From a virus (lineage: Duplodnaviria; Caudoviricetes): a stretch of DNA of 64,000 nt. The DNA lies in the IMG/VR virus record IMGVR_UViG_3300005973_000002; one strand, 5' to 3'. Within the stretch, counting starts at the first letter, position 1. The number at the start of each line of letters is the position of its first letter. The position numbers were made by a program, and so were the translations under genes. Positions 4,327 to 29,266 of this stretch are shown piece after piece. The notes below the pieces were generated by a model that did no database searches, had not been told where the DNA came from, and saw only the letters and a program-made list of their open reading frames with translations.

Positions 4327-4402
4327 TAGGACGCCCAGGAATCGAACCTGGTGACGACACAGTTTATAAGACTGCCGGCTTGAACCATCGGCCTCACGTC
4401 CT
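4327..4402 (-). tRNA. tRNA-Ile(UAU)
   Basis: Cloverleaf; anticodon arm GCAGT-CTTATAA-ACTGT. Confidence 0.85.
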
Positions 4403-4425
4403 GAACTATTACCAAGTATAGCAGC

Positions 4426-4746
4426 TCACCTTGGATTGTTGAACAGAAAAAGATTTATCCTCTTCCTAAGTTCATTAGCTTTTTTACTATCTTCATCTTC
4501 TGAAGAAATCAGATACTGTAATATATTTCTAAGCTCTTCTCTAAAGAATTGTACACGATCAGCTGACGCATCTCTTTCGTCTATAATTGTTTTAACTGAC
4601 GCTTCAATAGAAAGTCCCGCAGCATTAGGTGCTCTTCTGCTAAGAATTGCCGAAGTCATTTCAAACTTTTTACGCCAAGCAGCATTTTCATTTAATAAAC
4701 GAATCAAAGCTTCATTGAGTTCTTCAACATCTTTTTCTTTTGGCAT
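4426..4746 (-). CDS. Hypothetical protein
   Basis: 106-aa ORF with ATACTTA motif upstream. Confidence 0.55.
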   Translation of the reverse strand: MPKEKDVEELNEALIRLLNENAAWRKKFEMTSAILSRRAPNAAGLSIEASVKTIIDERDASADRVQFFREELRNILQYLISSEDEDSKKANELRKRINLFLFNNPR

Positions 4747-5000
4747 CTAAGATAAGTATGTGAAATATCACTTCGAAAGCATGATAACAATTAAAAACGA
4801 TGACAATACCACAATGTCAATAGGAAATTGGCGTCGCTGGTTTTTTTCCAGATATAGAAGGAAGCTACAACCTAAGCCTATTAACATTATGGTATTGTCA
4901 TCGTGAAAAATGCACAGAGGAAATCAGCAGCGCTGGTTAAAGATTACAATTTAGAAGGAAGCTCTAACTTAAGCCTCTGGCATAAGTATCAGTTAATCTC

Positions 5001-7184
5001 CTATGCTAGGAATTCATTCAAAACTGATTCAATCTCAGTTGCATTGAAGTCGCAGTCCGTAACACCGATCGTAAGATCGGCTTCATCACGGTCCTGAACC
5101 AGGATAGCACCTCGGCCATGAACATTGAACAAGGCAAGGTCAAGCATGTTCGGCTTCGTCTCAGCCATCCTGGAGATTTCTCTCGTAATAGCAGAAACCG
5201 ATTCAAGCGAATTTTCAACTCGGTTGTAAAGAATACGATTCCCCACATAGAGGTCTACAAAGACAATTTCATTAGTGTGCAAGTCTACAATCATTGGAAG
5301 ACTGTATGCGGCACGACCATTCAAGTTGAAAGCATTTTCAACCGTCTTGATATCAAAAGACTTGTACTTTTTATCAACCTTTTTACGGCACATCCAACCA
5401 GCATAGCACTCGTCCATATCAGCAAAGGAATCACCAGCGAAACGATAAATTTGTGGTGCAACATAACGAACGCCCCTCTTCTTTAAGACATCAATCTTGA
5501 CGTCAATGAATTCAGATGCACCATACGGAGCAGAGGTGATATCACCGGAGTGAACAATGCCAGAATCCGAAAGACGGGTGTAGCTAACATGACCCCTAAA
5601 ATTCATATTCTCGTCAAACTGAACCAAGGAAAGGTCAAGGTCTGTACAGGTATTCTTTTGCTTCCACCAAATGAAAAGACGAAGAACTTTTGAATCGTCG
5701 AACTTAAGACGAGTTCCTCGACCAACAGTCAAGAAAGAATCAGAAGCCTTGCGCTGTTGAAGCGGCACAACAAAGCTCTTCAAAATCGGGTCAACCCAAA
5801 CCTTCTTATCGGCCCAGCTTTCCTTTTCCTGTGCAATCTTCTTTTTAATTGCATCAGCCATGATAGCACCAGCAGCTACACCAGTGCGGTCAAGCTTTGG
5901 AAGCTCGTTCTTGAAGATCTTAATTTTGCCCTTTTTATTGATAACAGTACGATAATCGCAGTCATCAACTGTCCAGAAATAACGCTCCAAAACAAGAAGG
6001 GTTTTGAGTGGGACACGCTCTGCAACCTGCTCAAAAGCAGTTAAAACTTCGCCCTCACCACCATGAGCCGAAGCTCGACGAAGAACTGCGTGAAGTCGTC
6101 GAGCGAACTCACCCGGACGCTGCTTGAGCATCTCAAGATCATAAGAACCCGCAGACATAAGCATTTCGATTGTGTTGTTCCACGTGGCAAGCTTTTTCTC
6201 GCTGATTAGAGCGAAACCAGCAACCGCTGTCTTGTATTTGCCAATGTATTCACCAAAGTGAAGACCACGACCAATTGCGATCCAGAGACCACGATAAGTC
6301 TGCATATCCGTTGCCAAGCCTGGGAATTTATCCAAGGTTGCCATGATCAAACGTCGTTGCCTACGAGAAAATTTTGGAAACTTAATCTTTTCAGAAAGCG
6401 AAATGTCGCTATCTGTAAGTGCAGCAAAAAGACGCAAAAGATCTGTCGGGGCAGACGCAAGATTTAGCGCAGCCTCATAGTCCCCCTTGCTCCAGAAATA
6501 CTTCTGGACGTACGCCTTCGTTTCCTTGAAGGAAATTTGGTCACCGGGAATGTAATCTGCGCCATAAAGGTCAAGCAGAGTTTCAATATCTTCCCTGATG
6601 GTTTCTTTGATGGAAGACTTTGCTGTCAAAATATCGTTTAGATACTTCTGCCCAATTTCCCAAGCCTCATGTTCCGTAACAAAACGAAGCTTTGAAAGTG
6701 ACTTGGCCGTGTCTTCTTCACGGGCCTTTTGGTTATCAATTCCCTTGAGAAAGAGACCAAGATCTTGAAATTGAGTAATTGGGTCAACACCGAACTCATT
6801 GAGATCAAAAAGCCATTCAGGTATAATTACGCCCGAATCAAGCGTTTGACCGTTGGTAAACAATCCCAATACATTTCCCATAAGGCCATAAAACCTCTTT
6901 GAGAAATGCTCAAGTTCCGAAGGAACCTTGTTGGGAAAACCGGAAAAGAGCGGTACGTAATCTACATGACCAGCTTTTAACTTCTTAAGTGAGTTGATAA
7001 TCTTTGAATGGTTATCAAGAACAGTGTCAGCATACTTGTGCGTATCAATTGGTTCATAACCAAGAGAAGCCAGGCCGGAAAGGAAAATAAGCTTTTTTGC
7101 TGGAGTGGCACTCGTGCCATCCGGCACAACTAAAATACGCTTTTGACGGAGTAGTACGTCTGCCAATTTTTTGGAATATGTCAT
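5001..7184 (-). CDS. Large TerD-domain stress-response-type protein
   Basis: C-terminal DLDLS...HSGDITSAPYGASEFIDV resembles TerD. Start reset to ATG 7184 because the track ORF extends through two tRNA genes. Confidence 0.7.
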   Translation of the reverse strand: MTYSKKLADVLLRQKRILVVPDGTSATPAKKLIFLSGLASLGYEPIDTHKYADTVLDNHSKIINSLKKLKAGHVDYVPLFSGFPNKVPSELEHFSKRFYGLMGNVLGLFTNGQTLDSGVIIPEWLFDLNEFGVDPITQFQDLGLFLKGIDNQKAREEDTAKSLSKLRFVTEHEAWEIGQKYLNDILTAKSSIKETIREDIETLLDLYGADYIPGDQISFKETKAYVQKYFWSKGDYEAALNLASAPTDLLRLFAALTDSDISLSEKIKFPKFSRRQRRLIMATLDKFPGLATDMQTYRGLWIAIGRGLHFGEYIGKYKTAVAGFALISEKKLATWNNTIEMLMSAGSYDLEMLKQRPGEFARRLHAVLRRASAHGGEGEVLTAFEQVAERVPLKTLLVLERYFWTVDDCDYRTVINKKGKIKIFKNELPKLDRTGVAAGAIMADAIKKKIAQEKESWADKKVWVDPILKSFVVPLQQRKASDSFLTVGRGTRLKFDDSKVLRLFIWWKQKNTCTDLDLSLVQFDENMNFRGHVSYTRLSDSGIVHSGDITSAPYGASEFIDVKIDVLKKRGVRYVAPQIYRFAGDSFADMDECYAGWMCRKKVDKKYKSFDIKTVENAFNLNGRAAYSLPMIVDLHTNEIVFVDLYVGNRILYNRVENSLESVSAITREISRMAETKPNMLDLALFNVHGRGAILVQDRDEADLTIGVTDCDFNATEIESVLNEFLA

Positions 7185-7204
7185 TGTTTCCCTAATAATA
7201 TTAG

Positions 7205-7278
7205 TGTGATCGGGGAGAATTGAACTCCCATTTCCCGAGTCACAGTCGGGCGCCTTAAACCATTGAGACCACGACCAC
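7205..7278 (-). tRNA. tRNA-His(GUG), G-1 opposite A73
   Basis: CCCGA-CTGTGAC-TCGGG anticodon arm; followed by CTAA. Confidence 0.85.
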
Positions 7279-7290
7279 CACAAAATTTGA

Positions 7291-7367
7291 AGACGAGGTA
7301 GGGAATCGAACCCTAATAACATGCGGTTTTGCAGACCGCCGGCAGCAAACCCAGCTACAACCTCGTC
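7291..7367 (-). tRNA. tRNA-Cys(GCA)
   Basis: GCGGT-CTGCAAA-ACCGC; U73. Confidence 0.88.
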
Positions 7368-7410
7368 ATTAGACTTATATTTTTAGCAGGCAATCACTAA
7401 AGTGTAAACC

Positions 7411-8994
7411 CTATTGGCCACTTTTTCCATAATTAGGCAACACTCTAGCACTTGGATCGGTAACCTTGCAATTTTCCCATTCTTGGTTGGGCAACCAAAG
7501 TGCAGGTATAAGCTTGTCACGACCAGGATAATGTTTGTCAAAGATTTGACGGTAAAACAAACCTTCTTTGCTTAGTGGAGGTACATGTTTATATTCAGCA
7601 CTCCATGCTTCAAACTCTTTATCAGAAATCATCATTTCTGCATATGCCTTAATTCCATCAGCAACTGAATGTCCAACTGCGTCAGAAAATGCTGCTTTAT
7701 CTCTAAATAAAACATCTTTAGGCAGAAGTTTGAATTCTTCAAAAGAAGAACGTAGAAGGTGCTTTCCAATGCCTGTTGTGTTCATCTTAACCTGTGGATC
7801 AATTGACATAACGAAATCAACAAATTCAAGATCGCCAAATGGCACACGAGCCTCTAGAGCGTGTGAAGAAATACAACGGTCAGCTCTCAACACGTCATAA
7901 AGATAAAGCTCTCTGATGCGCTTCTGAGCCTCTTCCTGAAAAGCCGCAGGAGTCGGTGCAAAGTCTGTGTACTTGTAACCAAAAAGCTCATCAGAAACTT
8001 CACCAGTCATAAGAACTTTAATATCAGTATTCTCACGAATCCATTTACAAACCAAGTACATTCCGATAGATGCTCTTATTGTTGTTACATCCCAAGTTTC
8101 AAGCTGATAAATCAACTCGTCAAGGGTGTTCATAACTTCCTGTTGAGTGAAAGTTACGGTTGTGTGTTCCGCACCAATATATTCGGCCACCTTTTCAGCC
8201 CATGGGTTATCAATAGCATCAAGCTCTGATCCTACCGAAAAAGTTCTAATTGGAGTTTTCAAAAGTTTTGAAGCGATGGCACAAACCAAACTAGAATCTA
8301 AACCACCGCTAAGCAGGAAACCAATCGGTGCATCTGAATGCAAACGCTTTTCTACAGCTTTTGTAAGTTTGGTTGCAATTCCATCCTTCACTTCTTCAAT
8401 AGGCCGATGAAACGTATGCTGGTCTACCATCGACCGAAAGGGCTTCAATTGTCCATTAATGAGGATATGTCCTGGCGGAAACGGCATTACCGTTTCGAAT
8501 AGATCAGTCAATGCTTTTGCTTCGGATGCTAGTGCATATTCTCCATCTGGATTGACTCCGTAAAATAGAGGTCGAATACCAATTGGATCTCGTGCCGCTT
8601 GCAGATCATCAGAACTTGCATTATAATAAACCAGTGCGAATTCAGCATCTAAGTTTTGGGCCGCACGAAGCATACCGACGTTAGCTATTAACGGCAACAG
8701 TGCTTCACAATCAGAAGTAGATCGATAATCATAGCCAGAATACATCTCTCTTAGATGCTTTTCATTGTAAATCTCACCGTTGCAAACTACGAATGCTTCG
8801 TTAGTGTAATCAACAAATGGCTGGTTTCCACGAAACGTCAAATCCATGATTGATAAACGATGAAATGCAATGAAAACATCATTAACTCTTTGATACGTGG
8901 TCAAGTCAGGTCCACGATGCTTTAACCTTGAAGCAGCTTCTACAAGTTTATGTTCAGGGATTTTTATGCCCTTATACGCAAAGATTCCGCACAT
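7411..8994 (-). CDS. asnB: Asparagine synthetase B (glutamine-hydrolysing)
   Basis: N-terminal MCGIF, HRGPD, NGEIYN, LSGGLDSS, TTIRASIGMY, SDELFGY, LRADR, EARVPF. Confidence 0.95.
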   Translation of the reverse strand: MCGIFAYKGIKIPEHKLVEAASRLKHRGPDLTTYQRVNDVFIAFHRLSIMDLTFRGNQPFVDYTNEAFVVCNGEIYNEKHLREMYSGYDYRSTSDCEALLPLIANVGMLRAAQNLDAEFALVYYNASSDDLQAARDPIGIRPLFYGVNPDGEYALASEAKALTDLFETVMPFPPGHILINGQLKPFRSMVDQHTFHRPIEEVKDGIATKLTKAVEKRLHSDAPIGFLLSGGLDSSLVCAIASKLLKTPIRTFSVGSELDAIDNPWAEKVAEYIGAEHTTVTFTQQEVMNTLDELIYQLETWDVTTIRASIGMYLVCKWIRENTDIKVLMTGEVSDELFGYKYTDFAPTPAAFQEEAQKRIRELYLYDVLRADRCISSHALEARVPFGDLEFVDFVMSIDPQVKMNTTGIGKHLLRSSFEEFKLLPKDVLFRDKAAFSDAVGHSVADGIKAYAEMMISDKEFEAWSAEYKHVPPLSKEGLFYRQIFDKHYPGRDKLIPALWLPNQEWENCKVTDPSARVLPNYGKSGQ

Positions 8995-9192
8995 ATGTGT
9001 CTTCCTACTTTCTCTATGGAAGATATCATCTTATGAAAAAGCTGTTTACCAGCTTTGGAAATTAACAAAGGAAGGTGGACTTGCACCACATACGGATATA
9101 TCCTCACTCCTGAATACTGGAGCTGCTTTCACCATACCCATACCGCACCTCTCCACGAGGTGGTCAGCACGCTTGTCTGATTCATCCAGTGT

Positions 9193-9279
9193 TGGCGGAA
9201 GGCAGAGGAGTTGAACCCCATGGCCGAAACCACTCCACGCTTAGCAGGCGGGACCTGTCACCGTTCAGGATTACCTTCC
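9193..9279 (-). tRNA. tRNA-Ser(GCU)
   Basis: CTGCTAA loop, long variable arm, CCA. Confidence 0.9.
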
Positions 9280-9335
9280 ATGTTGTTTGTTTTCAATAAC
9301 AATACACTCTTTTAAAGAGCTTATTCTTACGTTAG

Positions 9336-9426
9336 CGGAGAGCACTGGAGTCGAACCAGATGCGAGTTTCTCACCCGCACGCACCGCTTTCCAGGCGGCC
9401 CCCATCACCGTCAGGGCTTACTCTCC
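9336..9426 (-). tRNA. tRNA-Ser(GGA)
   Basis: GCCGC-CTGGAAA-GCGGT, long variable arm, followed by CTAA. Confidence 0.9.
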
Positions 9427-9680
9427 AAAATTATTCAAATGAATTTCACAGAAATTACTAAGCATCATTGCCGTATCCTTGTAAGTATGGGACTACAAAG
9501 AAAGAATAGATAGTTCACACCCTGCATTAGCACAATAACGCTTGTAAGTTTAAGCAAATCGTGGTCCACTATTTCAATCAAAAACACAGATTGTTCTTCA
9601 AATGATTTTACATTGAGCACGCATCTAAGATACAGTTACAACTCAAACGTTCTCTGCTTGAGCATCTTTTTCTTGCTTAG

Positions 9681-9817
9681 TCGAGAAGGTAGGGATCGAA
9701 CCTACTATCATCCGTTGGATACGGAAGTCAAGAACATACATGTTCACACAATTATGAGTCATGTAGCACTTGTGGCATCCTTCACTGGGACCGCTTTTCC
9801 AGTAAGCTATCTTCTCG
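9681..9817 (-). ncRNA. tRNA-like RNA with a large internal expansion (137 nt)
   Basis: Acceptor CGAGAAG/CTTCTCG, D arm GCTT-ACTGGAA-AAGC and T arm GTAGG-TTCGATC-CCTAC, with about 85 nt between the D and T arms. Confidence 0.65.
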
Positions 9818-9818
9818 T

Positions 9819-9905
9819 TGGTGGAAGGTTGAGGTGTCGATCCCCACAGCCGAAGCTGCGCACTGTTTTCAAGACAGGCCCCGGAGCCGTCCGGGTTAAC
9901 CTTCC
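9819..9905 (-). tRNA. tRNA-Ser(UGA)
   Basis: CTTGAAA loop, long variable arm, CCA. Confidence 0.88.
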
Positions 9906-10602
9906 AAAATTATCATTGACATGTATCATATCAGTCGTTTATATTCTTACAAACTCTATTACTCGCCTTCTGTAGGTTTGCTTACTTCAAGATTTACTTC
10001 TGCTAAAACTTGTTCAAGGCCCACTTGGTCAGTCTCTTCTTCACCTTTTTTAGTAAGGTTATCACACATAGTTTTGTGATGACATTTCAAACCCTTGTTG
10101 GCTGATACATGAATGATAAGTTGTTTTTGTTGTCAACAAAAACAACCAAGTAGTTACGCAGACCGTGTCTAGAATTATTTACCCATCCATCTTTCTGTTA
10201 GCACCCTCAACCAGCATGCCAAAACTTTCTCGTTCGTTGTTGAATGCTCACAAATCAACGACGTTGCTAAAAGCCCCAAACTAATAAATTAAAAGACGAA
10301 CAGCTTTCTGCTTCTAAAATAGAAACACATCACCTGCTCCACCGAATTGGCGGATAAAGCCTAACGCATAATTCCAACCAGCTTCGTTGGCCTGAAAGAG
10401 TGACACAGAATATCGATTATCTGTGACTTCATCCTCCCAAACCCATCGTATTTCTTTTTTTATTTCAAAAATCTTGCGAAGTTGAACATAGTCAACGTGG
10501 TTTCTATAAACCAATATAATGTTTTTAGTTCTAATAGCAAGAAGTGAACCAAAGATAGCAAATTGCTTTATTTCTTTGTCTTCTGTTAAAAACTTGATTG
10601 CA

Positions 10603-10890
10603 TCAAGTGATGTTTGAGAATGGCCTTGGTTCTCCAGAGATTTTAACTTCACAAGTATGTCCTCGGAAGATTTTGGGGAGTTGCTCGCCAACTTCTTTAT
10701 TTTTGACATAGAAAAAAATCCTATCAGTTCCAATTCCAACAGCTCTAACTCCAGTTGATTCGCCATTCTCTTGTTCTACAAACTGTTCAGAAGCAAGTTT
10801 GGCAGCCTCACGTAAAGGAAGTTCCTCATTGCTGGGATGGGAGTATGGATCAATGTATTTTGTTTGTTTGGTCATCTCTTTCTTACTCAA
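10603..10890 (-). CDS. Hypothetical protein
   Basis: 95-aa ORF with globular composition. Confidence 0.5.
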   Translation of the reverse strand: MSKKEMTKQTKYIDPYSHPSNEELPLREAAKLASEQFVEQENGESTGVRAVGIGTDRIFFYVKNKEVGEQLPKIFRGHTCEVKISGEPRPFSNIT

Positions 10891-10929
10891 TCATAACGCT
10901 TTATGTGCATCAGTTTACCACATGCCTGG

Positions 10930-12795: not shown

Positions 12796-12829
12796 AATGA
12801 TCTCAAAAATATTTAGGTCGCCGAATGGA

Positions 12830-16598: not shown

Positions 16599-16613
16599 TG
16601 TGAGTTTCCTTAG

Positions 16614-17955: not shown

Positions 17956-18129
17956 AAATTTTGTCTGTAAAGGTACCGTTACCTTCAATACCTACCCGCA
18001 ATGGTAGGCCCCACGGGAACTTCCATCGCACGTATTATTCAAACCCAGCGTTTAGGCTGGTTGAATGAATAAACCCTTGAGTTCAGTCATTTTCGGTTAC
18101 AGACAAAGCTCGTAATCCATCGAGCTTAG

Positions 18130-18850: not shown

Positions 18851-18871
18851 TATAGCCTCAATTTAGTTTAG

Positions 18872-18946: not shown

Positions 18947-18998
18947 ATCAATTTACAACATAATTTTTTGTCTTAAAGAAGAGTGTTGTTTATGTTAG

Positions 18999-19079
18999 CG
19001 GAGAGCAGCGGAATCGAACCGCCGTCGGTAGCTATCCGACGCCATCCCCAGGAGCGTTTCACTTCTCCCAAGACTCTCC
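18999..19079 (-). ncRNA. Ser-like tRNA lacking a normal D arm
   Basis: Acceptor GGAGAGT/GCTCTCC, G73, variable arm GTCGG/CCGAC and T arm present; one hairpin replaces the D and anticodon arms. Confidence 0.55.
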
Positions 19080-19155: not shown

Positions 19156-19257
19156 TGTATGTCTTTCCGTACTGTCATCCTGTTTCTTCAGGCAATAACT
19201 TCTCATTCGGGGAAGTCCCTATTTCTACACGTTGACGTCATTATGCAGAACGGTTAG

Positions 19258-19340: not shown

Positions 19341-19483
19341 AAATAAAACGTCGGCGTTCACCATCGGACTCGTTGACTATCAGCTAGGCGAACTCACCTC
19401 TTGGCTTACACGTCACATATAAGGAGTTACCATTAATTTCCATCCCCATAATGGTGGAAATTGATTCAGGCTCCGACGTTTAG

Positions 19484-19986: not shown

Positions 19987-19999
19987 ATTTTTTCCTTAG

Positions 20000-20357: not shown

Positions 20358-20366
20358 TTATGTTAG

Positions 20367-20440: not shown

Positions 20441-20449
20441 ATGATTATT

Positions 20450-20527: not shown

Positions 20528-20528
20528 T

Positions 20529-20762: not shown

Positions 20763-20785
20763 ATCATACCGTTCACAGGATTTAG

Positions 20786-21252: not shown

Positions 21253-21260
21253 AAACTTAG

Positions 21261-21518: not shown

Positions 21519-21589
21519 AGCGGCTAGTGGGAGTCGAACCCACGCTCACAGCTTGGCAAGCTGTTGTACTACCGTAATACTTTAGCCGC
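21519..21589 (-). tRNA. tRNA-Gly(GCC)
   Basis: TTGCCAA loop, U73. Confidence 0.9.
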
Positions 21590-21899
21590 AAATCCCCAAT
21601 ATGGGGCGACACGTTCATTTACATATGTCAAACTTTTCTCTTTCTGTCCAAGGTCGGAAAGTAACCCAATATATCGGTTTACCTTTCTTATCGTATCCCA
21701 CAGGTTCTTTAACCCAAACCGCAAACACATCATATTGTTTTAGATCGGCTGTGCAGTGACCAATTCTACCCTTTTCAAGGTAGAAATCACTGTCAGGGTT
21801 ACCGATATCCTCGGTCAATTTTACCTAATGATTGAGGTATCCTTCATCTTCTATTTTCATATTTGCCTCCATTTGCAAAGTGCGCTCTTGGAGCCTTAG

Positions 21900-21973
21900 C
21901 AAGCTGTCTAGGACTCGAACCTAGAACATTTCCTTCGTAGGGAAGTATGATAATCCAATTTCACCAACAGCCC
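21900..21973 (-). tRNA. tRNA-Arg(ACG)
   Basis: CTACGAA loop. Confidence 0.88.
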
Positions 21974-21976
21974 ATT

Positions 21977-22444
21977 TTAATTATATCCGCCTTTACAATG
22001 TGTAGGTAATGTCGCATTACAATTTGGACATAAAAATCTTAGATTTTCTAATCTGTTATCATTTCTTATTCCATTTATATGGTCAAGAATCAATGATATC
22101 TTTTTTCCATTCCAATTATCATCCAATGGACACATAGAACAAGTGTAAGATATTAGTTTGTCTTTGACAATCCTATTTCTAAGAACAGATCTTGCAACTG
22201 TAGAATTTACTACAAATATATCTTTGTATCCTCTTTTGCTTAGAGATTTTGTCTGATACAAATAATTTGCCATTTCTTTTCTACCTAAAAAATGACTAGT
22301 GTCTATATTCCATTCTTTTATTTTCTTTTTTAGAGTTTTGTACGCAGAACTAGAAGCATTGCGCTCAAATTTATCTAAAACCATCTTGTAGCTCAATGAA
22401 ACTTTCACCGCTTCTTTTAGCGTTTTTTCTGTATATTGTTTCAT
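21977..22444 (-). CDS. HNH homing endonuclease
   Basis: CSMC...LDHINGIRNDNRLENLRFLCPNC; real start ATG 22444. Confidence 0.9.
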   Translation of the reverse strand: MKQYTEKTLKEAVKVSLSYKMVLDKFERNASSSAYKTLKKKIKEWNIDTSHFLGRKEMANYLYQTKSLSKRGYKDIFVVNSTVARSVLRNRIVKDKLISYTCSMCPLDDNWNGKKISLILDHINGIRNDNRLENLRFLCPNCNATLPTHCKGGYN

Positions 22445-22474
22445 AGAAATGCTCTTCCTTTGAGCTATGGGAGC
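22445..22474 (-). pseudogene. Orphan tRNA 5' half fused to the HNH start codon
   Basis: GCTCCCA-TA-GCTCAAAGGAAGAGC-A-TTTCT then ATG; D arm identical to tRNA-Arg(UCG) at 16614. Confidence 0.7.
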
Positions 22475-22500
22475 AAAGATAACTATCCTCAGCAAATCTA

Positions 22501-22588
22501 GTTTGCCGATGGGACTCGAACCCATACTGGACCGGGTTCGAGCTTTCGCCCTACTACCAGCGCCTCTGCCAAATTGGGCTACGGAGGA
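22501..22588 (-). ncRNA. tRNA-like element with an insert in the anticodon loop
   Basis: Leu-type D arm GCCCAATTTGGCAGAGGC; GCTGG/CCGGT stem around a 21-nt loop; T arm present; acceptor partly mismatched. Confidence 0.55.
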
Positions 22589-22592
22589 AAGT

Positions 22593-22669
22593 TGGAGCTG
22601 GCACAGGGAATCGAACCCTGATTTCTCGCTTACGAGGCGAGTGTAATGTGACCGTTATACTATGCCAGC
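22593..22669 (-). tRNA. tRNA-Thr(CGU)
   Basis: CTCGTAA loop, CCA. Confidence 0.92.
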
Positions 22670-22820
22670 AATGATTTAAATAGTTTCAATCTCTAAATTT
22701 CGTCGCTCGGGAAGGACTTCAACCTTCAGGCCCCTGAAAAGGGATTTGTTCCACTGACCTCCAGTGACGACGGAGTTGCACCGTCTACCCGCCCTGTTTC
22801 TCAGGGCGACAAAGATTTAG

Positions 22821-22894
22821 TTCCCAAGGGTGGATTCGAACCACCATCACATGGCTTCAGAGACCAGTATCATAAACCGTTAGACCACTTGGGA
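22821..22894 (-). tRNA. tRNA-Gln(CUG)
   Basis: CTCTGAA loop. Confidence 0.87.
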
Positions 22895-22950
22895 ATATCA
22901 AAAGAAATCTTTAAAATGCCTACTTTACGCCGACACGAGGTTTCTTTTAG

Positions 22951-23021
22951 CTCGGGGTGAGGGAATCGAACCCCCATTCATGGAGTCAAAGGCCATTGTC
23001 CTACCGTTGGACGAACCCCGA
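22951..23021 (-). tRNA. tRNA-Gln(UUG)
   Basis: CTTTGAC loop; U1:A72, G73. Confidence 0.9.
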
Positions 23022-23030
23022 AAAATCTAG

Positions 23031-23103
23031 CTCTGGGAGAGGGACTCGAACCCCCGACCAAGAAGTTAACAGCTTCCCGCTCTACCAACTGAGCTATCCC
23101 AGA
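23031..23103 (-). tRNA. tRNA-Asn(GUU)
   Basis: Canonical; U1:A72, G73. Confidence 0.93.
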
Positions 23104-23239
23104 ATATTGCGTATACCATACGCAGAAACAATAGGTAACCTATCTACTTTATATCTTTTGTCAGGATATCAATGACTATTGTCGTTTGTACCTCATTATT
23201 CAGAACAACTAATCCAAAATAAACTAGTTGAATTCCTTT

Positions 23240-23312
23240 TGGTACCACCGGAGAGAATTGAACTCTCACCCAAGTGCTTATGAAACACTGGTCCACGCCT
23301 TTGGTCGGTGGT
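23240..23312 (-). tRNA. tRNA(CAU), Met or Ile2, with reduced D arm
   Basis: AGTGT-TTCATAA-GCACT; CCA. Confidence 0.75.
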
Positions 23313-23323
23313 GTACCATATCA

Positions 23324-23405
23324 TGTACTCTATGGGATTTGAACCCATTTCTCCCTCCTTTTAAAGGGCGTTTTCTCCTGCCGAACCAAGCCTTTCCAGA
23401 GGTAA
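23324..23405 (-). pseudogene. Degenerate tRNA-like element
   Basis: T arm ATGGG-TTCAAAT-CCCAT intact; other arms poorly paired. Confidence 0.4.
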
Positions 23406-23454
23406 CCATGGATTCTCTAGCGGTATTTTTTCGGCTAAACTAAGAGCACATTAG

Positions 23455-23527
23455 TGGAACCTAAGGGATTTGAACCCTTGACCTTCTGTATGCCATACAG
23501 ATGCTCTCCCAACTGAGCTAAGGCCCC
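23455..23527 (-). tRNA. tRNA-Ala(GGC)
   Basis: G3:U70; ATGGCAT loop. Confidence 0.92.
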
Positions 23528-23538
23528 ATTAATTTGTT

Positions 23539-23614
23539 TGGTGGAGAGAAGGGGAATCGAACCCCTCACACGGTGCTTGCAAGGCGTCCTCGCCCCCTTG
23601 GAACATGCCACCCC
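23539..23614 (-). tRNA. tRNA-Ala(UGC)
   Basis: G3:U70; CCA. Confidence 0.85.
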
Positions 23615-23695
23615 AAATAACAAACCCGAAAGCAATACCCATGATCTGGGGATTGTAAACCACCACGTTCGTGGCCCCTAACTGCTTGGGTTGGT

Positions 23696-23771
23696 TGGTG
23701 TCACCCACAGGACTTGAACCTGTACGCCTCGGGCTTCAACCGAGCGCTCTACCAAATTGAGCTAGGGTGAC
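23696..23771 (-). tRNA. tRNA-Phe(GAA)
   Basis: CTCGG-TTGAAGC-CCGAG; CCA. Confidence 0.92.
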
Positions 23772-23772
23772 G

Positions 23773-24129
23773 TTAGTAGATAACTTTTACTGCGTGTCCT
23801 GCTTTTAGCAGGTCTTCATTTAAGGTTTCAGAAGAATCCTCAGGCGAAACGGTTACTATCCATCTTCCGTATTTACCTTGAAGCTTTTCGGACTCAATCA
23901 AGAATCTGTTTGGCGCTTTGGAAGCGAACCAGTTTTCCACAAATTCTTTAGCAGCCATACCTTTTTGGTATTCTTCGGATTCCTTCTTTACACCATATGT
24001 TTCTGGTGTATCTAATCCAGCAAGTCTTACTCGCACTTTGGTGCAAATTCTAAATCCTAGATCTACTGTAATGTCTAGAGTGTCGCCATCGACAACACGA
24101 TCAAGAGTTGCATAATAGTTGTGTACCAT
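23773..24129 (-). CDS. Thermonuclease (SNase-like) protein
   Basis: VVDGDT, RVRLAGLDTPE, KYGR, LNEDLLKAGHA. Confidence 0.88.
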   Translation of the reverse strand: MVHNYYATLDRVVDGDTLDITVDLGFRICTKVRVRLAGLDTPETYGVKKESEEYQKGMAAKEFVENWFASKAPNRFLIESEKLQGKYGRWIVTVSPEDSSETLNEDLLKAGHAVKVIY

Positions 24130-24154
24130 GTTAGTAAATATGGCACACGTTTAG

Positions 24155-24244
24155 TGTGTCCCTCCGGATTTGAACCAGTCGTCATAACCAACCCCACTTA
24201 TTTTTTGACAACGGTTTTACAGACCGCCGTGAGGAAAGGAACCC
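24155..24244 (-). ncRNA. D-armless Tyr(GUA)-like tRNA with a long variable region
   Basis: GCGGT-CTGTAAA-ACCGT; no D stem; about 32-nt variable region. Confidence 0.55.
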
Positions 24245-24271
24245 ATTCGATATTCAATTTTCAAAGATTAG

Positions 24272-24352
24272 TGGGGACGGTAGGAATCGAACCTACTTGC
24301 CCGAAGGCCACGGGGTTACAGCCCGCTGCCGTACCGTTACGGCGTCGCCCCC
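24272..24352 (-). tRNA. tRNA-Tyr(GUA)
   Basis: Canonical class II. Confidence 0.92.
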
Positions 24353-24470
24353 ATTAGAGATATATTTGCATTTTATATGCAGTGTTAACAAGGTATAAAC
24401 ATACTTTTGTCTTAAAATCGATTCATACAATCTACATTTGTCAGATGCTGGTAAATTAATGTTTGACATT

Positions 24471-24545
24471 TGGTAGCGGGTGAGGGATTCGAACCCCCGT
24501 CTCTTGGTTATGAGCCAAGCGAGATGACCACTTCTCCAACCCGCA
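24471..24545 (-). tRNA. tRNA-Met(CAU), initiator-like 1:72 mismatch
   Basis: T1/T72 mismatch, CTCATAA loop; lacks the three consecutive GC pairs in the anticodon stem. Confidence 0.85.
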
Positions 24546-24670
24546 ACAAAAAACTTATCGAACCGCCAACCTTACCCTTCATGGGTACATGACTGCTGGT
24601 CTCCACACCAGGGAGCCTAGTTGTGGAGAACTAGGCTCTCGTTCCTTAGCTGCTTTAAGGCAGCAAATAT

Positions 24671-24759
24671 TGGTAGCCAGGGCGAGATTCGAACTCGCAC
24701 TCCATTTTACTGGAACTGGATCCTTAGTCCAGCGGGTCTGCCAATTCCCCCACCTGGCC
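24671..24759 (-). tRNA. tRNA-Leu(AAG)
   Basis: CTGGA-CTAAGGA-TCCAG; long variable arm; A73; CCA. Confidence 0.88.
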
Positions 24760-24937
24760 ATATGAGGCTACCCCGATTTAGGGCGATTTAATCTGGATTC
24801 AAGTCCAGAACCTCCAAAAACTTTCATAACTTGTCTGGTGTTTGACGCACCAGGGCGTCAGTGTGGATATTGATACCCGCTTCACGCCATCAGCCTTTCG
24901 GCTTCCAATATTCGTTATGATTAGTGACCTCGACGGG

Positions 24938-25351
24938 TCATCTATATTGTTTTCTTTTCCAAGTTCGTAACCTATGACAATTAGAACAGACTAATTCACA
25001 TTTTTTAATTTCTTCCAAAAGTCGTTTTTGAGAGAAACCATTTACAATCCCATCTGACAATTCGAAACTTTTATTGCCAAGATGATCAAAGTCCATGCAA
25101 ACAGGATGGTATGTTTTTTCACAATCAACACAAGGTGATTTTTTTATCTCCCACAAAAAATCCTTATTAAGTTTTTTTCGTTTGCGATCATAAGCCTTTT
25201 CTTTCTTTTGATTATTTCTATAATAATCAACTCTTGCTTTCGCAGCACAAACTTTACAGTAGGCTTGTAAACCTTTTTTACCAGATTTGTACGTTCTTGA
25301 ATGAAAGGCTTTATTAGATTTTTCTATCTTACATTTTATACATGTTTTCAT
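24938..25351 (-). CDS. HNH endonuclease
   Basis: CxxC motifs; CVDC...DFDH...CELVCSNCHRLR. Confidence 0.88.
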   Translation of the reverse strand: MKTCIKCKIEKSNKAFHSRTYKSGKKGLQAYCKVCAAKARVDYYRNNQKKEKAYDRKRKKLNKDFLWEIKKSPCVDCEKTYHPVCMDFDHLGNKSFELSDGIVNGFSQKRLLEEIKKCELVCSNCHRLRTWKRKQYR

Positions 25352-25356
25352 AATAA

Positions 25357-25428
25357 TGACCCTACGGAGACTCGAACTCCGATCACGAGATTGAAAGACT
25401 CGTATCCTTGCCGTTAGACGATAGGGCC
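25357..25428 (-). tRNA. tRNA-Glu(UUC)
   Basis: CTTTCAA loop. Confidence 0.9.
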
Positions 25429-25475
25429 AAAGGGAAATCCTTATTCAGTTTTCAAGGAAGAAACTTAGTATATCA

Positions 25476-25547
25476 TCGTCCGAACAGGGATTGAACCTGT
25501 GACCTCTTCCGTGTCAAGGAAGCGCTCTCCCACTGAGCTACCGGACG
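25476..25547 (-). tRNA. tRNA-Val(GAC)
   Basis: TTGACAC loop. Confidence 0.92.
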
Positions 25548-25728
25548 GATTGTAAATATTGTTTTGCTCTTTCTAAAATCTCCACAGAATCCCTGAAAAG
25601 ACCTAATCCAGTATTACAACTACTGTAACGCTTGAAACTCCTGTTTGCAACTTTGACAAATCTTCGTTTCTTTTTTCTCTGTATCTCATGGTGTTAACAG
25701 TTTATCATGAGATAAAAAGACTGTTTAG

Positions 25729-25801
25729 TTGGCCCACTGGGAATCGAACCCAGATCTCAGCTTTATCAGAGCTGCGTGCTAAACCGCTCTACTATGGGCC
25801 A
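25729..25801 (-). tRNA. tRNA-Ile(GAU)
   Basis: CAGCT-CTGATAA-AGCTG. Confidence 0.92.
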
Positions 25802-25857
25802 ATAGTTTCATCAGACGGAGGGTGTACTGCCCAATATTTTTAACTATGTTATTTTGT

Positions 25858-26133
25858 TTACTTTTTGTCTAAATCTTCGATATCTTCAGGATACACATTT
25901 CCGTTTTCATCTCTCATGGGCTGATATTCTTCCCAACCCATAATTTCGTTTCTTTTCTGGGCTGCTTCCAGCCTGGTTTTTGCATTATATTCAGCAATCA
26001 GCTGAACCTTTTCTTTGAAAAATCCAAGACGGTATGCAATCGATTCTAGCCGATTTCTACGGCACTCGAAACTGTCTTTGGGTGATAGACTAATGCTGCC
26101 ATCATATTCATTTTCCCAGATTTGAAACAACAT
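25858..26133 (-). CDS. Hypothetical protein
   Basis: ORF starting after tRNA-Lys. Confidence 0.55.
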   Translation of the reverse strand: MLFQIWENEYDGSISLSPKDSFECRRNRLESIAYRLGFFKEKVQLIAEYNAKTRLEAAQKRNEIMGWEEYQPMRDENGNVYPEDIEDLDKK

Positions 26134-26144
26134 TGGTTTTCTCT

Positions 26145-26219
26145 TGGTGGGGCGCCTGGGAATCGAACCCAGCTCATTCGGCTTAAAAGGCCGTTGCATC
26201 GCCTTGATGCTAACACCCC
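26145..26219 (-). tRNA. tRNA-Lys(UUU)
   Basis: CTTTTAA loop, CCA. Confidence 0.92.
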
Positions 26220-26237
26220 AAATTTACATAGTTTATT

Positions 26238-26405
26238 TGGTGGAGCTTATTGAAGCTGTCGCCACCGGAATATTACATCCGAAACGTATTGCCCGGCGTC
26301 GCTTGTTCGGCGTCGGGGCGCCCGCCATTCCCTGCGAATCTCTTATTCTACCCTAGGTCGGCGCCAGTTTCAACCTCGTTTCCAGTTGAAACCTATTGCG
26401 TCTCA
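26238..26405 (-). ncRNA. Possible degenerate tmRNA-like RNA (about 165 nt)
   Basis: 5' GAGACGCAATAGGTTTCAAC resembles tmRNA 5' ends; 3' GCTCCACCA; GC-rich structured middle; no tag ORF seen. Confidence 0.3.
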
Positions 26406-26431
26406 AAATGTAACGAAGAAATTTAAAAGAC

Positions 26432-26653
26432 TCAGACAGTAGTTGCTGTCATTGCAGTCTGCATAGAATACTTCAGGCATTCAAGCTGAATGAGCGTCTT
26501 TTCAAGAACAACACCTGTGAGGCGCTCATCGCCATCCGTGCATTCCAATACAAAACTATGAACTTCACCTACGGTGAGTCGCCCATCTCGAATGGCAATT
26601 GCGAATCCCTTGACGAGATCATCAGCAGTATTAATTTGAAAGTTGCTGTACAT
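26432..26653 (-). CDS. Hypothetical protein
   Basis: 73 aa with upstream GGAGG. Confidence 0.55.
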   Translation of the reverse strand: MYSNFQINTADDLVKGFAIAIRDGRLTVGEVHSFVLECTDGDERLTGVVLEKTLIQLECLKYSMQTAMTATTV

Positions 26654-26730
26654 GTTTCCTCCTTAGGGATTTCTAAGGCTAAGGAAGGATAACATCCCAG
26701 GGTTTGAGAGTAAACCTTATTTCAAATTTC

Positions 26731-27021
26731 TTACCAGCCTGCTGCCTTGAGTTTGGCCTGTACTGCTTGCTTGATAAGTTCTTTTTGCTGAGGATCTTTT
26801 TCACCCTTCATTGCTGCAAGAAGCTGATCAAGATTCATATTTGCATTCAACCAAGGATTTTGGCCTGCTTTTGCAGCCTGGGCACGGCCTGGAGTGCCTC
26901 CGGGCTTAAAACCACTGCGCTGCTGTCCAGCTCCTGGTAAACCAGAAATTTGTTCATCAATTTGCTCACGTACGGCCTCACGGACCATTTCTTTAAGCTG
27001 TTTAAAGGTAAGTTTTGCCAT
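26731..27021 (-). CDS. Hypothetical protein with an N-terminal L-x-E helix motif (possible virion protein)
   Basis: KQLKEMVREAVREQIDEQ. Confidence 0.6.
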   Translation of the reverse strand: MAKLTFKQLKEMVREAVREQIDEQISGLPGAGQQRSGFKPGGTPGRAQAAKAGQNPWLNANMNLDQLLAAMKGEKDPQQKELIKQAVQAKLKAAGW

Positions 27022-27100
27022 TGTGTTTACTCCGATTGCAGTAATCTGCCTGTGAGTAAATAGTTGTCTTTAGGCATTATTCTTTTCTTAGAAAAAATTT

Positions 27101-27774
27101 TGGTCGTTCCGGGAAGAATCGAACTTCCATATTCGCTTTATCAGTCAACCAATCCAAGTTGGCGTAGTTTCTTCTTTACAGCAACGTCAGACACACCGAC
27201 AATTTTGGCTATTTCTGTATAGGTCATCTTGTTTTTTACAGCTAAACTCAAATCAACCTTTTCCCATTTACCTTTGATTTTAGTTTTGCCAACACAAGCC
27301 TGCGAACAATATTTTCGCAAATCAGATTTCAATTTACCACAATGTTTACAAGGTGTTAGATTTATATGTTTTTCTTTGCGATATTTCTCAAAAGAAAAAT
27401 CAAATCTAACAATATCTTTTGGGATTGTTGTGATTTCGTCATGAACTTCACGATGACAATTTGCACAAAGTAAAACACATTTTTTTGCTTCTTTTACTAG
27501 TTTTTCCCATCGTGCTACCTTGTTCCATTTTGAAAATGTGAAATCTTTTTCATCTTTATTTAGATGATGGAATTCTAAAGCTTTTAGTGTTTTACTGTAT
27601 CCACATATTCCGCATTTACTTCCAAAAGCCTCTTTGAGACGTTTAATGGTGCGTTCACGCCATGCTTTTACATACTTGTATTCTGCCATCGTCTAACCTC
27701 AATGCATAACTATATCATAGTTGGATATAAATCTATAGAGGTTCGATGCCCTTAGGCCATTAGACGACGGAACG
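27101..27774 (-). pseudogene. tRNA-Ile(GAU) split by an HNH gene (3' half 27101-27144; 5' half about 27745-27774)
   Basis: 5' acceptor CGTTCCG pairs fully with 3' CGGAACG-A-CCA; D arm upstream and CTGATAA loop plus T arm downstream of the HNH ORF. Confidence 0.85.
27141..27689 (-). CDS. HNH homing endonuclease inside tRNA-Ile
   Basis: CGICG..ALEFHH...KCVLLCANCHREVH; C-terminal HTH-like segment. Confidence 0.9.
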   Translation of the reverse strand: MAEYKYVKAWRERTIKRLKEAFGSKCGICGYSKTLKALEFHHLNKDEKDFTFSKWNKVARWEKLVKEAKKCVLLCANCHREVHDEITTIPKDIVRFDFSFEKYRKEKHINLTPCKHCGKLKSDLRKYCSQACVGKTKIKGKWEKVDLSLAVKNKMTYTEIAKIVGVSDVAVKKKLRQLGLVD

Positions 27775-27788
27775 ATATGCCGGATCAA

Positions 27789-27864
27789 TACAACAACAGT
27801 TGGATTCGAACCAACAACCTGGACTTTCATAGAGCCCCGCTCTACCATTGCAGCTATGTGTTGT
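27789..27864 (-). tRNA. Atypical tRNA with AUG (His) anticodon and bulged acceptor
   Basis: GGGCT-CTATGAA-AGTCC; acceptor ACAACACA/TGT-T-GTTGT. Confidence 0.65.
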
Positions 27865-27875
27865 AAAGGCGACAT

Positions 27876-27950
27876 TGGTCGGTCGCCTGGGAATCGAACC
27901 CAGCTCTGATGGATTAAGAGTCCAGTGCATCGCCTTGATGCTAACGACCG
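27876..27950 (-). tRNA. tRNA-Lys(CUU)
   Basis: CTCTTAA loop, CCA. Confidence 0.9.
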
Positions 27951-28045
27951 AAACGAAAGTTCACTCATGAGAAGTCATGGAATCCTGGCAGTGAACATTT
28001 CCAAAGTAAGCACTCTAGCCATTTTGATTCATTCGAGTTACTTAG

Positions 28046-28118
28046 TGGAGAATAAGGGATTCGAACCCTTGACTCCGGTGTGCAAGACCGGTGTGTTCCC
28101 AATTAGCACCAATTCCCC
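28046..28118 (-). tRNA. tRNA-Ala(UGC)
   Basis: G3:U70. Confidence 0.92.
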
Positions 28119-28314
28119 AAAAAACTTGCAACCGTCAAGCCATGCCCCCAGGGGGACCGCCAGACTGCCTCTCTGCCAAGAGGGAACTTGATGGTGGCAG
28201 CCATCTTGTTTCGTTGCTTGAATTTGCATCGTCTCTCCGACGTGTCAAGTCTAGTGCTCGGGAGTCCTTCAAAGTTTGAAGGGTCCTTTGCTGGGACGTA
28301 CCGACTTTCGAACC

Positions 28315-28390
28315 TGGCGGGACCGACGAGATTTGAACTCGCACCCTCTCCCGTGACAGGGGAGCGCACTGCCAATTATGCTACGGCCCC
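28315..28390 (-). tRNA. tRNA-Asp(GUC)
   Basis: CTGTCAC loop, G73, CCA. Confidence 0.92.
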
Positions 28391-28393
28391 AAA

Positions 28394-28512
28394 ACATGAC
28401 CTATAACAGATGATCAGTCTGTCAGGTGGTTGCCTATGGCAACTCTTACCATTTACATGACCTATAATCAATCGATCTCATTGATCAGGTAGATGTTCTC
28501 CATCTTTTACCA
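28394..28512 (-). repeat. Two tandem 58-nt copies of a covarying two-hairpin motif
   Basis: Copies at 28394-28451 and 28455-28512 share TGGTAARA...ACCTG...TATAGGTCATGT; stems differ in sequence but keep pairing. Confidence 0.75.
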
Positions 28513-28517
28513 GTTAG

Positions 28518-28592
28518 TCAGGATGGCGGGACTCGAACCCACATGATCCCGGCTCCAAACCGGGTGACTCAAACCAATTAGCCTACATCCTG
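28518..28592 (-). tRNA. tRNA-Pro(UGG)
   Basis: TTTGGAG loop. Confidence 0.9.
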
Positions 28593-28705
28593 TTGAAATT
28601 TCCCATTCCATTACCCATTGGACTTGAAGTGTCACGACTTGGCATGAACATTAAGGACTTGTAACCAACTTGCCGCTTCTGATATTCGGGGACACCTGGG
28701 AAATT

Positions 28706-28781
28706 TGGCATCTCTGGTAGGACTCGAACCTACACCCTACCGGGTAGAAGCCGGTGGCTCTTCCAATTGAGCTTCAGAGAC
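28706..28781 (-). tRNA. tRNA-Arg(UCU)
   Basis: CTTCTAC loop, CCA. Confidence 0.92.
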
Positions 28782-28865
28782 AAAAACCTGCCCAGATTAG
28801 GACTGCACTATCCAATCCAGCTCCATAAAGGTTTTTAGCGGTTTATTGACCGACAGGTATTTTAG

Positions 28866-28939
28866 CAGGCCACCAGAGACTCGAACTCTGACCTTCCGGT
28901 TTTGGAGACCGGCGTGCTACGCAATTACACCAATGACCT
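28866..28939 (-). tRNA. tRNA-Trp(CCA)
   Basis: CTCCAAA loop. Confidence 0.9.
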
Positions 28940-28948
28940 ATTATTTAG

Positions 28949-29036
28949 TGGGCCCCTAGGGATTCGAACCCTAAATGGGGATTGGTTACCCGCCTGGTTA
29001 AGAGCCAGGTGCCTTCAACCGTTCAGCCAGAGACCC
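28949..29036 (-). tRNA. tRNA-Lys(CUU) with a 19-nt variable arm
   Basis: CCTGG-CTCTTAA-CCAGG; class II-type D arm; variable CGGGTAACCAATCCCCATT. Confidence 0.85.
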
Positions 29037-29043
29037 ATGTTAG

Positions 29044-29115
29044 CGGGGCAGGTTGGATTCGAACCAACACTTTCTAGCTTCAGCTAGACGTGCTACCAAT
29101 TAACACTACCGCCCC
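29044..29115 (-). tRNA. tRNA-Phe(GAA)-like with a 6-nt anticodon loop
   Basis: TCTAG-CTGAAG-CTAGA; one base short, possibly a sequencing indel. Confidence 0.7.
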
Positions 29116-29193
29116 AAAAGCGTATTCAGTTGTCAAAGAGAACTATACTTTTGTAGCCTCAGGAAGCGCTACAAACAAATAAAAAGATTTTAG

Positions 29194-29266
29194 TGACCCC
29201 AGGGGGACTTGAACCCGCCACCTCATGCTTGAGAGGCATGCCACCTACCATTAGTTAGATGGGGCC
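29194..29266 (-). tRNA. tRNA-Glu(CUC)
   Basis: CTCTCAA loop. Confidence 0.9.

Follow-up and report, generated by a model that had tools for sequence, protein, structure and literature searches.

IMG/VR record IMGVR_UViG_3300005973_000002 contains the 64,000-nucleotide stretch of Caudoviricetes DNA analyzed here (the window), which is part of a very large T4-related phage. Among the genes of the window are those for a large terminase of the T4 type, a split DnaE polymerase, asparagine synthase, tRNA nucleotidyltransferase, and part of a class II aminoacyl-tRNA synthetase. It also carries 49 tRNA genes predicted by ARAGORN, most of them in one array (Table 1). This main array lies wholly on the minus strand, where the tRNA genes alternate with small open reading frames (ORFs) and with HNH or LAGLIDADG endonuclease genes. 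The subject of this analysis is the 3' tail of these genes, that is, the bases that follow the discriminator (N73), about half of which read C-T-A(A) and not C-C-A.

Positions 73-84 were read from the genome after each acceptor-stem end reported by ARAGORN. The tail is CTA in 24 of the 49 genes (23 CTAA, 1 CTAG) and CCA in 17 (15 CCAA). The remaining eight tails occur once each: TTA, TCA, CTG, CTC, TAT, TGA, GTA, and CAA. C74 is present in 44/49 genes, and the non-CCA genes that have it are the 24 with CTA and those with CTG, CTC, and CAA; position 75 is a pyrimidine (C or U) in 44/49. ARAGORN searches with relaxed or intron-tolerant settings add tRNA-like genes with CTA tails at 9680, 18998, and 22501, and others with CCA tails at 9819, 23240, 23539, and, split by an HNH gene, at 27101-27774. 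With these included, the totals are about 27 CTA, 21 CCA, and 10 other. An earlier note on this DNA had counted about 29, 21, and 10 by hand, and all 21 of the positions that it listed are discriminators of CTA-tailed genes. By isotype, threonine tRNAs have only CCA (3/3), those for Ala, Asn, and Gln have only CTA, and tails are mixed for Pro, Leu, Lys, Arg, Ser, His, and Ile. The tail of the one plus-strand tRNA gene, CAAA, is the commonest tail type of other phages.

Table 1. Coordinates of CTA-tailed tRNA genes and of other features in the window (tRNA rows give the tail unless a whole gene or array is named)
Feature	Coordinates	Strand	Basis or remark
tRNA-His(gtg) CTAA tail (C74-T75-A76-A77)	7201..7204	-	ARAGORN and genome letters
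tRNA-Ser(gga) CTAA tail	9332..9335	-	
tRNA-Arg(tcg) CTAA tail	16610..16613	-	
tRNA-Ala(tgc) CTAA tail	18126..18129	-	
tRNA-Leu(caa) CTAA tail	18868..18871	-	
tRNA-Leu(tag) CTAA tail	19254..19257	-	
tRNA-Val(tac) CTAA tail	19480..19483	-	
tRNA-Gly(tcc) CTAA tail	19996..19999	-	
tRNA-Pro(tgg) CTAA tail	20363..20366	-	Adjoining tRNA-Pro genes (20279, 20450) have CCAA
tRNA-Asn(gtt) CTAA tail	20782..20785	-	
tRNA-Asn(att) CTAA tail	21257..21260	-	
tRNA-Arg(acg) CTAA tail	21896..21899	-	
tRNA-Gln(ctg) CTAA tail	22817..22820	-	
tRNA-Gln(ttg) CTAA tail	22947..22950	-	
tRNA-Asn(gtt) CTAG tail	23027..23030	-	
tRNA-Ala(ggc) CTAA tail	23451..23454	-	
tRNA-Tyr(gta) CTAA tail	24268..24271	-	
tRNA-Ile(gat) CTAA tail	25725..25728	-	
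tRNA-Ala(tgc) CTAA tail	28042..28045	-	
tRNA-Pro(tgg) CTAA tail	28514..28517	-	
tRNA-Trp(cca) CTAA tail	28862..28865	-	
tRNA-Lys(ctt) CTAA tail	28945..28948	-	
tRNA with odd anticodon loop (ARAGORN '?'), CTAA tail	29040..29043	-	
tRNA-Glu(ctc) CTAA tail	29190..29193	-	
tRNA-like gene with large insert, CTAA tail (whole gene)	9677..9817	-	Relaxed ARAGORN
Weak tRNA-like gene, CTAA tail (whole gene)	18995..19079	-	Relaxed ARAGORN
Weak tRNA-like gene, CTAG tail (whole gene)	22498..22588	-	Relaxed ARAGORN
Main tRNA array	4327..29266	-	46 ARAGORN tRNA genes and about 9 weaker tRNA-like genes
Outlying tRNA-Leu(cag) and tRNA-Ser(cga), at 36985 and 38433	36985..38523	-	Both CCAA; ARAGORN
tRNA-Val(tac), sole plus-strand tRNA	49796..49868	+	Tail CAAA; ARAGORN
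Class II tRNA nucleotidyltransferase, N-terminal half	40832..41779	-	PolyA_pol head, profile positions 1-77
GIY-YIG/NUMOD3 homing endonuclease gene splitting the nucleotidyltransferase gene	40192..40926	-	
Nucleotidyltransferase, C-terminal half	39030..40310	-	Rest of head and RNA-binding domain
Small P-loop kinase (AAA_33)	47852..48304	+	Weakly similar to polynucleotide kinase-phosphatase kinase domains

The statistics confirm that the CTA(A) pattern is real, non-random, and strong. The base composition of the tRNA strand predicts CTA in 1.6% of tails, whereas 24 of 32 non-CCA tails have it (p ~4e-37). When the two C>T transitions of CCA are compared, there are 24 tails with CTA and one with TCA (p = 1.5e-6), and in tails that have C74 and lack C75 the ratio T:A:G at position 75 is 26:1:0. 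This bears out the earlier note's view that C74 and A76 are kept while C75 changes in a way that is not random. The bases that follow are also fixed. Among the 26 tails that begin CT, A76 is present in 24 and A77 in 25; A77 follows CCA or CTA in 38/41 genes (p ~8e-17), and CCA alone in 15/17. Information content at positions 74-77 is 1.81, 0.77, 1.32, and 1.04 bits and falls to about 0.1 from position 78 onward, so the constrained unit is N73-C-Y-A-A. On the 5' side, the leader base at -1 is U, the usual bacterial base, in 37/49 genes.

Most of the CTA genes have a full cloverleaf and a normal discriminator in the ARAGORN structures, and the discriminators obey bacterial identity rules. The gathering cut-off of Rfam RF00005 is passed by 21 of the 24, with scores of 44-68 bits for 20 genes and of 32 bits for the gene at 19999; the genes at 9335, 19483, and 23030 have no register-matched Rfam match above the cut-off. 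Scores of the CCA genes are 44-71 bits, and those of the CTA class are just slightly lower. Degraded structure alongside an intact duplicate, the mark of a tRNA pseudogene, is not what most CTA genes display, and Ala, Asn, Gln, Trp, Tyr, and Gly are represented in the window by CTA genes only. A few tRNA-like genes of the array are clearly aberrant.

We considered several other ideas about the pattern and rejected each. The tail register is independent of ARAGORN because the Rfam tRNA matches stop at the same discriminators; a T-loop-anchored pattern also gives this register, which rules out an ARAGORN artefact. The TAA within CTAA does not appear to be kept as a stop codon for overlapping ORFs, since the CCAA genes have no TAA and the tail sits at the tRNA end. 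Pairing between leader and trailer was dismissed because positions -2 and -3 are unable to pair with C74 and U75. Finally, a division of the array into CTA and CCA blocks is ruled out by interleaving of the two gene types, which form no separate blocks or obvious separate transcription units.

Public sequencing runs place the array in five hypersaline-lake DNA metagenomes. Over 13.5 kb it is near-identical in contigs from three hypersaline-lake metagenomes, one of which is not a candidate source of the record. Each contig match has one or two differences over this length, and the differences listed all lie outside the tails. The window and the main lake-metagenome contigs differ over the 13.5 kb at just two positions, 16604 (G>A) and 21128 (C>T), both outside the tRNA tails. 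No C/T polymorphism at the tails was seen in the contigs of the three lake metagenomes. Because the same tails occur in three metagenome assemblies, T75 is not an assembly error.

When the array was compared by megablast with cultured and deposited phages, just one 39-base tRNA match and no close relative emerged, and single-protein searches of IMG/VR with a 773-aa array protein and with the N-terminal half of the CCA enzyme found none. Among 80 metagenome loci collected with a terminase profile, tRNAs occur in only 3. The closest relative from a terminase search of IMG/VR (G001, terminase 74% identical) is a 36.6-kb fragment with 12 tRNAs that are about 70% identical to those of the window. 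Its tails are CTAA (4), CCA (3), CCG (2), CAA (2), and one of uncertain register. A distant relative, LR756508.1 (484 kb, terminase 38%), has C74 in 30/30 tRNAs and CCA in 3; its tails include CTT (9), CAT (4), CTA (3), CAC (3), and CAA (3). A further terminase homologue, at 3891-5510 of IMGVR_UViG_3300011013_000137 (L002, 43% identity), has one in-frame stop under translation table 11, possibly from recoding, a sequencing error, or a frameshift.

The earlier note had asked for tails to be tabulated across this and related phages. Two scans of IMG/VR covered phages more widely. The first searched for a T-loop followed by CTAA and counted the other tRNAs at the same loci, of which 373/402 have C74 (CAA 150, CTA 54, CCA 42). 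The second was seeded on a T-arm word, independent of the tail, and gave 321 distinct tRNAs, including CCA 186, CAA 29, CTT 11, CTG 10, CTA 8, and TCA 2. Among the tails of this second sample that depart from CCA at a single position, 41 do so at position 75, five at 76, and two at 74, and in arrays of at least 8 tRNAs C74 is present in 48/54 non-CCA tails. CTA makes up 49% of window tails versus 2.5% of this tail-independent viral sample (Fisher p ~1e-17). The record IMGVR_UViG_3300012012_000956 (L292) has eight copies of the tRNA T-arm word spaced about 125 bases apart at 1507-2398, which looks like a tandem array of one tRNA or tRNA-like unit.

Phage arrays are largely bimodal, either all-CCA (L290, L316, L370, L375, L287, and phage T5, 22/22) or C74-only (L217, L154, L164, L212, L189). 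Non-CCA tails are also found in Flavobacterium phage immuto (CAG and CAA, beside CCA), Microcystis phage Mel-JY01 (CAA), Rhodothermus phage RM378 (CAG), and cyanophage S-CBWM1, whose 36 tRNAs include CTT 9 and TTN 11. Some bacteria have the same gene type. A Neomarinimicrobiota metagenome-assembled genome (MAG; G005) has C74 in 16/16 tRNA genes and CCA in none, and a MAG labelled Gammaproteobacteria (G007) has C74 in 23/23 and CCA in 4. Bacterial tails of these kinds were also recovered without ARAGORN, by a T-loop-anchored pattern search. C74-only arrays also include tRNAs with the amber-reading anticodon CTA, called Pyl by ARAGORN, in LR756508.1 (434334, L021), L151, and L187.

In many phages, and in some bacteria, tRNA genes that lack CCA thus normally retain C74 and change position 75. 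Across the sources, C74 is present in about 90-100% of such genes; departures from CCA are almost confined to position 75, with CAA more frequent than CTN. The tabulation therefore upholds the non-random change at position 75 and shows that the trait is not special to this phage. In the literature searched we did not find the general rule stated, that is, C74 kept, change at 75, and arrays either all-CCA or C74-only. What distinguishes the window is the near-even mix of full-CCA and C74-only genes, and the presence of U75-A76-A77 in almost all of the latter.

A candidate for completing these ends is encoded near the array. As the earlier note had recognized, the window contains both a putative CCA-adding enzyme, here found as a gene split in two by a homing endonuclease, and a kinase resembling polynucleotide kinase, a weak match (Table 1). 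CCA tRNA nucleotidyltransferase is the top NCBIfam match of the C-terminal half, below the cut-off; both halves score below equivalog cut-offs, and activity, rejoining of the halves, and specificity for CCA over poly(A) are presumed. Genes of the same family (PF01743) are present in the window, S-CBWM1, G008, G011, G018, G019, G020, G021, and LR756508.1, all with C74-only or mixed arrays. The family was not found in the complete G009, which has a C74-only array, nor in the complete all-CCA phages G013 and G014 or in T5.

Co-occurrence with a cca gene had been proposed as a check. Among near-complete records PF01743 occurs in 9/10 with C74-only or mixed arrays versus 0/3 with all-CCA arrays (Fisher p = 0.014), a small sample in which kinship and genome size are ignored and the tails of large records come just from around the seed loci. 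We treat the association as a lead; it holds in this sample, with G009 and T4 as cases of non-CCA tRNA genes in phages that have no cca gene. PF01743 was also identified in 10/10 bacterial control genomes, so a host CCA-adding enzyme is probably available. Given T4 and G009, the host enzyme can evidently suffice.

The tails raise the question of how the encoded RNAs acquire a CCA end. We consider it fairly probable that the CTA(A) genes are intact partial-CCA tRNA genes, whose transcripts would have the trailer trimmed and the end completed by a CCA-adding enzyme. From the observed pattern, its non-randomness, its spread, and the enzyme genes we infer the RNA-level steps as follows. The gene would template C74 only, and U75-A76-A77 would be the first bases of the 3' trailer. 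RNase P would cut on the 5' side, where U at -1 is conserved, and the trailer would be removed as far as C74 or N73. Candidates for this step are 3'-5' exonucleases that pass A and U easily and stall at C. Alternatively, an RNase Z/BN-type enzyme could strip the wrong residue of tRNA-C-N or cut after C74; Synechocystis RNase Z is said, in work by Ceballos-Chavez and Vioque from 2005, to move its cut to that point. The host enzyme or the split phage enzyme would then add C75-A76 or the whole CCA. C74 is probably there for the RNase P RCCA contact and as the mark at which trimming stops or the cut is made, and we attribute its retention to the general rule for partial-CCA genes in many phages and some bacteria. 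U75 could wobble-pair with the GGU loop of RNase P while breaking the CC pair, and A76-A77 may be kept as an easily trimmed trailer.

The earlier note had likewise suggested trimming to C74 and rebuilding. This appears to be the most economical reading and fits known pathways; its choice of RNase T-type exonucleases is less secure, as RNase T is restricted to some bacteria. Several precedents exist for the individual steps. In T4, maturation of the tRNA-Pro and tRNA-Ser precursors requires BN nuclease and nucleotidyltransferase (PMC11143913). The GGU loop of RNase P RNA pairs with N73-C74-C75 (PMC11143913). A passage of PMC7479834, citing Asha 1983, describes removal of the ends of tRNA-CA and tRNA-CU by E. 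coli RNase BN/Z. A chloroplast 3' nuclease cuts after C74, and nucleotidyltransferase supplies the rest (PMC3161902). RNase T acts fastest on trailers starting with A and is inhibited by C (PMC6961547), and in M. tuberculosis most tRNAs need full or partial CCA addition (PMC10673834).

Some observations weigh against this reading. Within the window there is no gene for RNase Z, BN, T, PH, or D, and no RNA run is among the public runs that match the array. The full CCA kept by 17-21 genes of the same array is unexplained, as is the fixation of U at position 75, versus A in most other phages. The first C reportedly causes most of the inhibition of RNase Z (Pellegrini, in 2003). For standard tRNase Z, C74 is described as the strongest anti-determinant (PMC3161902).

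Among known systems T4 is closest. Its array also mixes CCA-encoding and CCA-less tRNA genes, its genome having four CCAA tails together with Pro A-CTG, Ser G-TAA, Ile TAT, and Gln CGC. The tRNA-Pro gene thus reads C74-U75 like the window tails, and A77 follows the T4 CCA genes too. The T4 precursors of tRNA-Pro, -Ser, and -Ile, which lack CCA, are matured by host BN nuclease (RNase BN/Z), tRNA nucleotidyltransferase, and RNase P, so that the 3' end must be trimmed and rebuilt (PMC11143913); the window precursors would need the same. The differences are that T4 has 8 tRNAs with four unlike non-CCA tails, whereas 24-27 window genes share CTAA, and that T4 uses the host CCA enzyme whereas this phage has its own split gene.

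Chloroplast and mycobacterial partial-CCA genes are similar in that C74 or CC is templated and the rest is added. However, C74 or more is present in just ~17-32% of chloroplast genes, near chance, and is nearly universal in the window and in many phage arrays; the window also fixes positions 75-77. The C74-only arrays of uncultured phages (CAAA, CTAA, CTN) and the bacterial MAG sets share N73-C74, a base other than C at 75, and often A76-A77, and many of the phage records have a cca-like gene. These arrays are almost wholly C74-only, mostly with A75, whereas the window has about 40% CCA and 50% CTA and almost never A75. T5, too, has HNH endonuclease genes interspersed in a large tRNA array on the minus strand, and A77 follows CCA in 21/22 of its genes, but all 22 encode the full CCA. 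Partial-CCA tRNA genes are known, and what is new is the uniform CUAA tail, its half-and-half occurrence with CCA, and the phage's own CCA-enzyme gene.

The alternative that fares best is neutral decay, which we regard as doubtful. If a CCA-adding enzyme is always available, C75 would be unselected and could drift from CCA to CTA by C>T changes, with C74 still under selection. In favor of this, a single transition turns CCA into CTA, the genome is AT-rich (40% GC), the phage has a CCA-enzyme gene of its own, and the many CCA genes still in the array are as expected of an ongoing process. Yet the 26:1:0 ratio at position 75 demands a transition bias of at least 8-fold per transversion (p = 2.6e-4 at kappa 4 and 0.019 at kappa 8). 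A76 and A77 are fixed in the CT tails even though they would be trailer bases, the transversion product CAA is fixed in other phages, and the tails show no C/T polymorphism in the three metagenomes.

It is unlikely, in our view, that the tails serve phage-controlled licensing, whereby CUA ends would make half of the tRNAs depend on the phage CCA-adding enzyme, perhaps delivered in the virion, and place them under phage timing. The enzyme gene near the array, the co-occurrence of cca-like genes with non-CCA arrays, and a CCA/CTA mix that is unusual among the sampled phages would all suit this idea. Dependence on the phage enzyme, which the earlier note had raised, is possible but not required, given PF01743 in all bacterial controls and the absence of a cca gene from T4 and G009. 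Moreover, the existence of C74-only genes in bacteria marks the pathway as a housekeeping one, and CTA and CCA genes are interleaved, with no obvious transcription units of their own. A more specific version, to which we give a low probability, is that CUAA is a lineage-specific processing signal: U75 would keep a G-U contact with RNase P and block use of the unprocessed RNA until it is licensed by the phage enzyme, possibly delivered with the virion. If true, the phage would have a switch over which codons are readable and when.

Relief of RNase Z inhibition is still less probable. Here U75 would lift the block that CCA imposes on RNase Z, allowing a cut after the discriminator and addition of the full CCA. 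Trailers that start with CC or CCA are cut poorly by RNase Z enzymes (PMC7479834), and the CC pair is lost whatever base replaces C75. This simple form does not fit because C74, reportedly the greatest inhibitor (PMC3161902), is the retained and best conserved base (44/49, 1.81 bits), and it predicts neither selection of A76-A77 nor U over A or G at 75. That the CUA-ended RNAs stay unrepaired, as uncharged tRNA-like decoys or regulators or as decaying pseudogenes, is highly improbable: the few aberrant tRNA-like genes would agree with it, but in most CTA genes the cloverleaf is complete, the discriminator normal, and the Rfam score good, several are sole copies for their amino acid, and there are bacteria whose whole tRNA sets have this tail type as a rule.

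Two other purposes suggested in the earlier note are unsupported. The mature tRNA would have its CCA in any case, so evasion of CCA-targeting toxins is not an expected consequence, and no support was found for removal of integrase attachment sites. Since C74-only tails are common in phage arrays and in some bacteria, no phage-specific purpose is needed for C74.

The host of this phage may be hinted at by the asparagine synthase (AsnB) gene inside the array (7411-8994, minus strand), whose nearest cellular homologues, 54% identical, come from MAGs of Halobacteriovorax and Bacteriovoracaceae; this is a possible clue to a host or donor. Halobacteriovorax-like MAGs encode CCA in 25/27 tRNA genes, followed by T-rich trailers, and the exceptions are CTA and CCT; these tails argue neither for nor against such bacteria as hosts. 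An otherwise CCA-encoding Bacteriovoracaceae MAG (G002:C2:7837-7989, L144) has a tandem tRNA-Met pair with tails CCT and CTAA. Elsewhere in the window, a release-factor-like gene (36036-36716, minus strand, 226 aa) adjoins tRNA-Leu(cag). It has a PCRF end and an RF-1 (GGQ) domain, lacks the N-terminal part, and is nearest to RF1 (192 bits, cut-off 400). The DnaE-type polymerase (58708-63820, plus strand) is in two ORFs, the first of which ends in Hint/intein-like sequence, and the ORF between them (60709-61512) is weakly similar to phage endonuclease I.

Overall, about half of the tRNAs of this phage appear unable to work as transcribed and would need a trim-and-rebuild step, which would give the phage CCA-adding enzyme gene a concrete job. 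The wider survey suggests three rules, none of which we found stated in the literature searched: arrays tend to be all-CCA or C74-only; the first C is kept in about 90% of non-CCA tails, with the change almost only at position 75; and the C74-only type tends to travel with cca. If these rules hold in a complete census corrected for phylogeny, tail type could be a cheap marker of host tRNA 3'-processing and a clue for host prediction, and the rules would explain why so many large phages encode CCA-adding enzymes.

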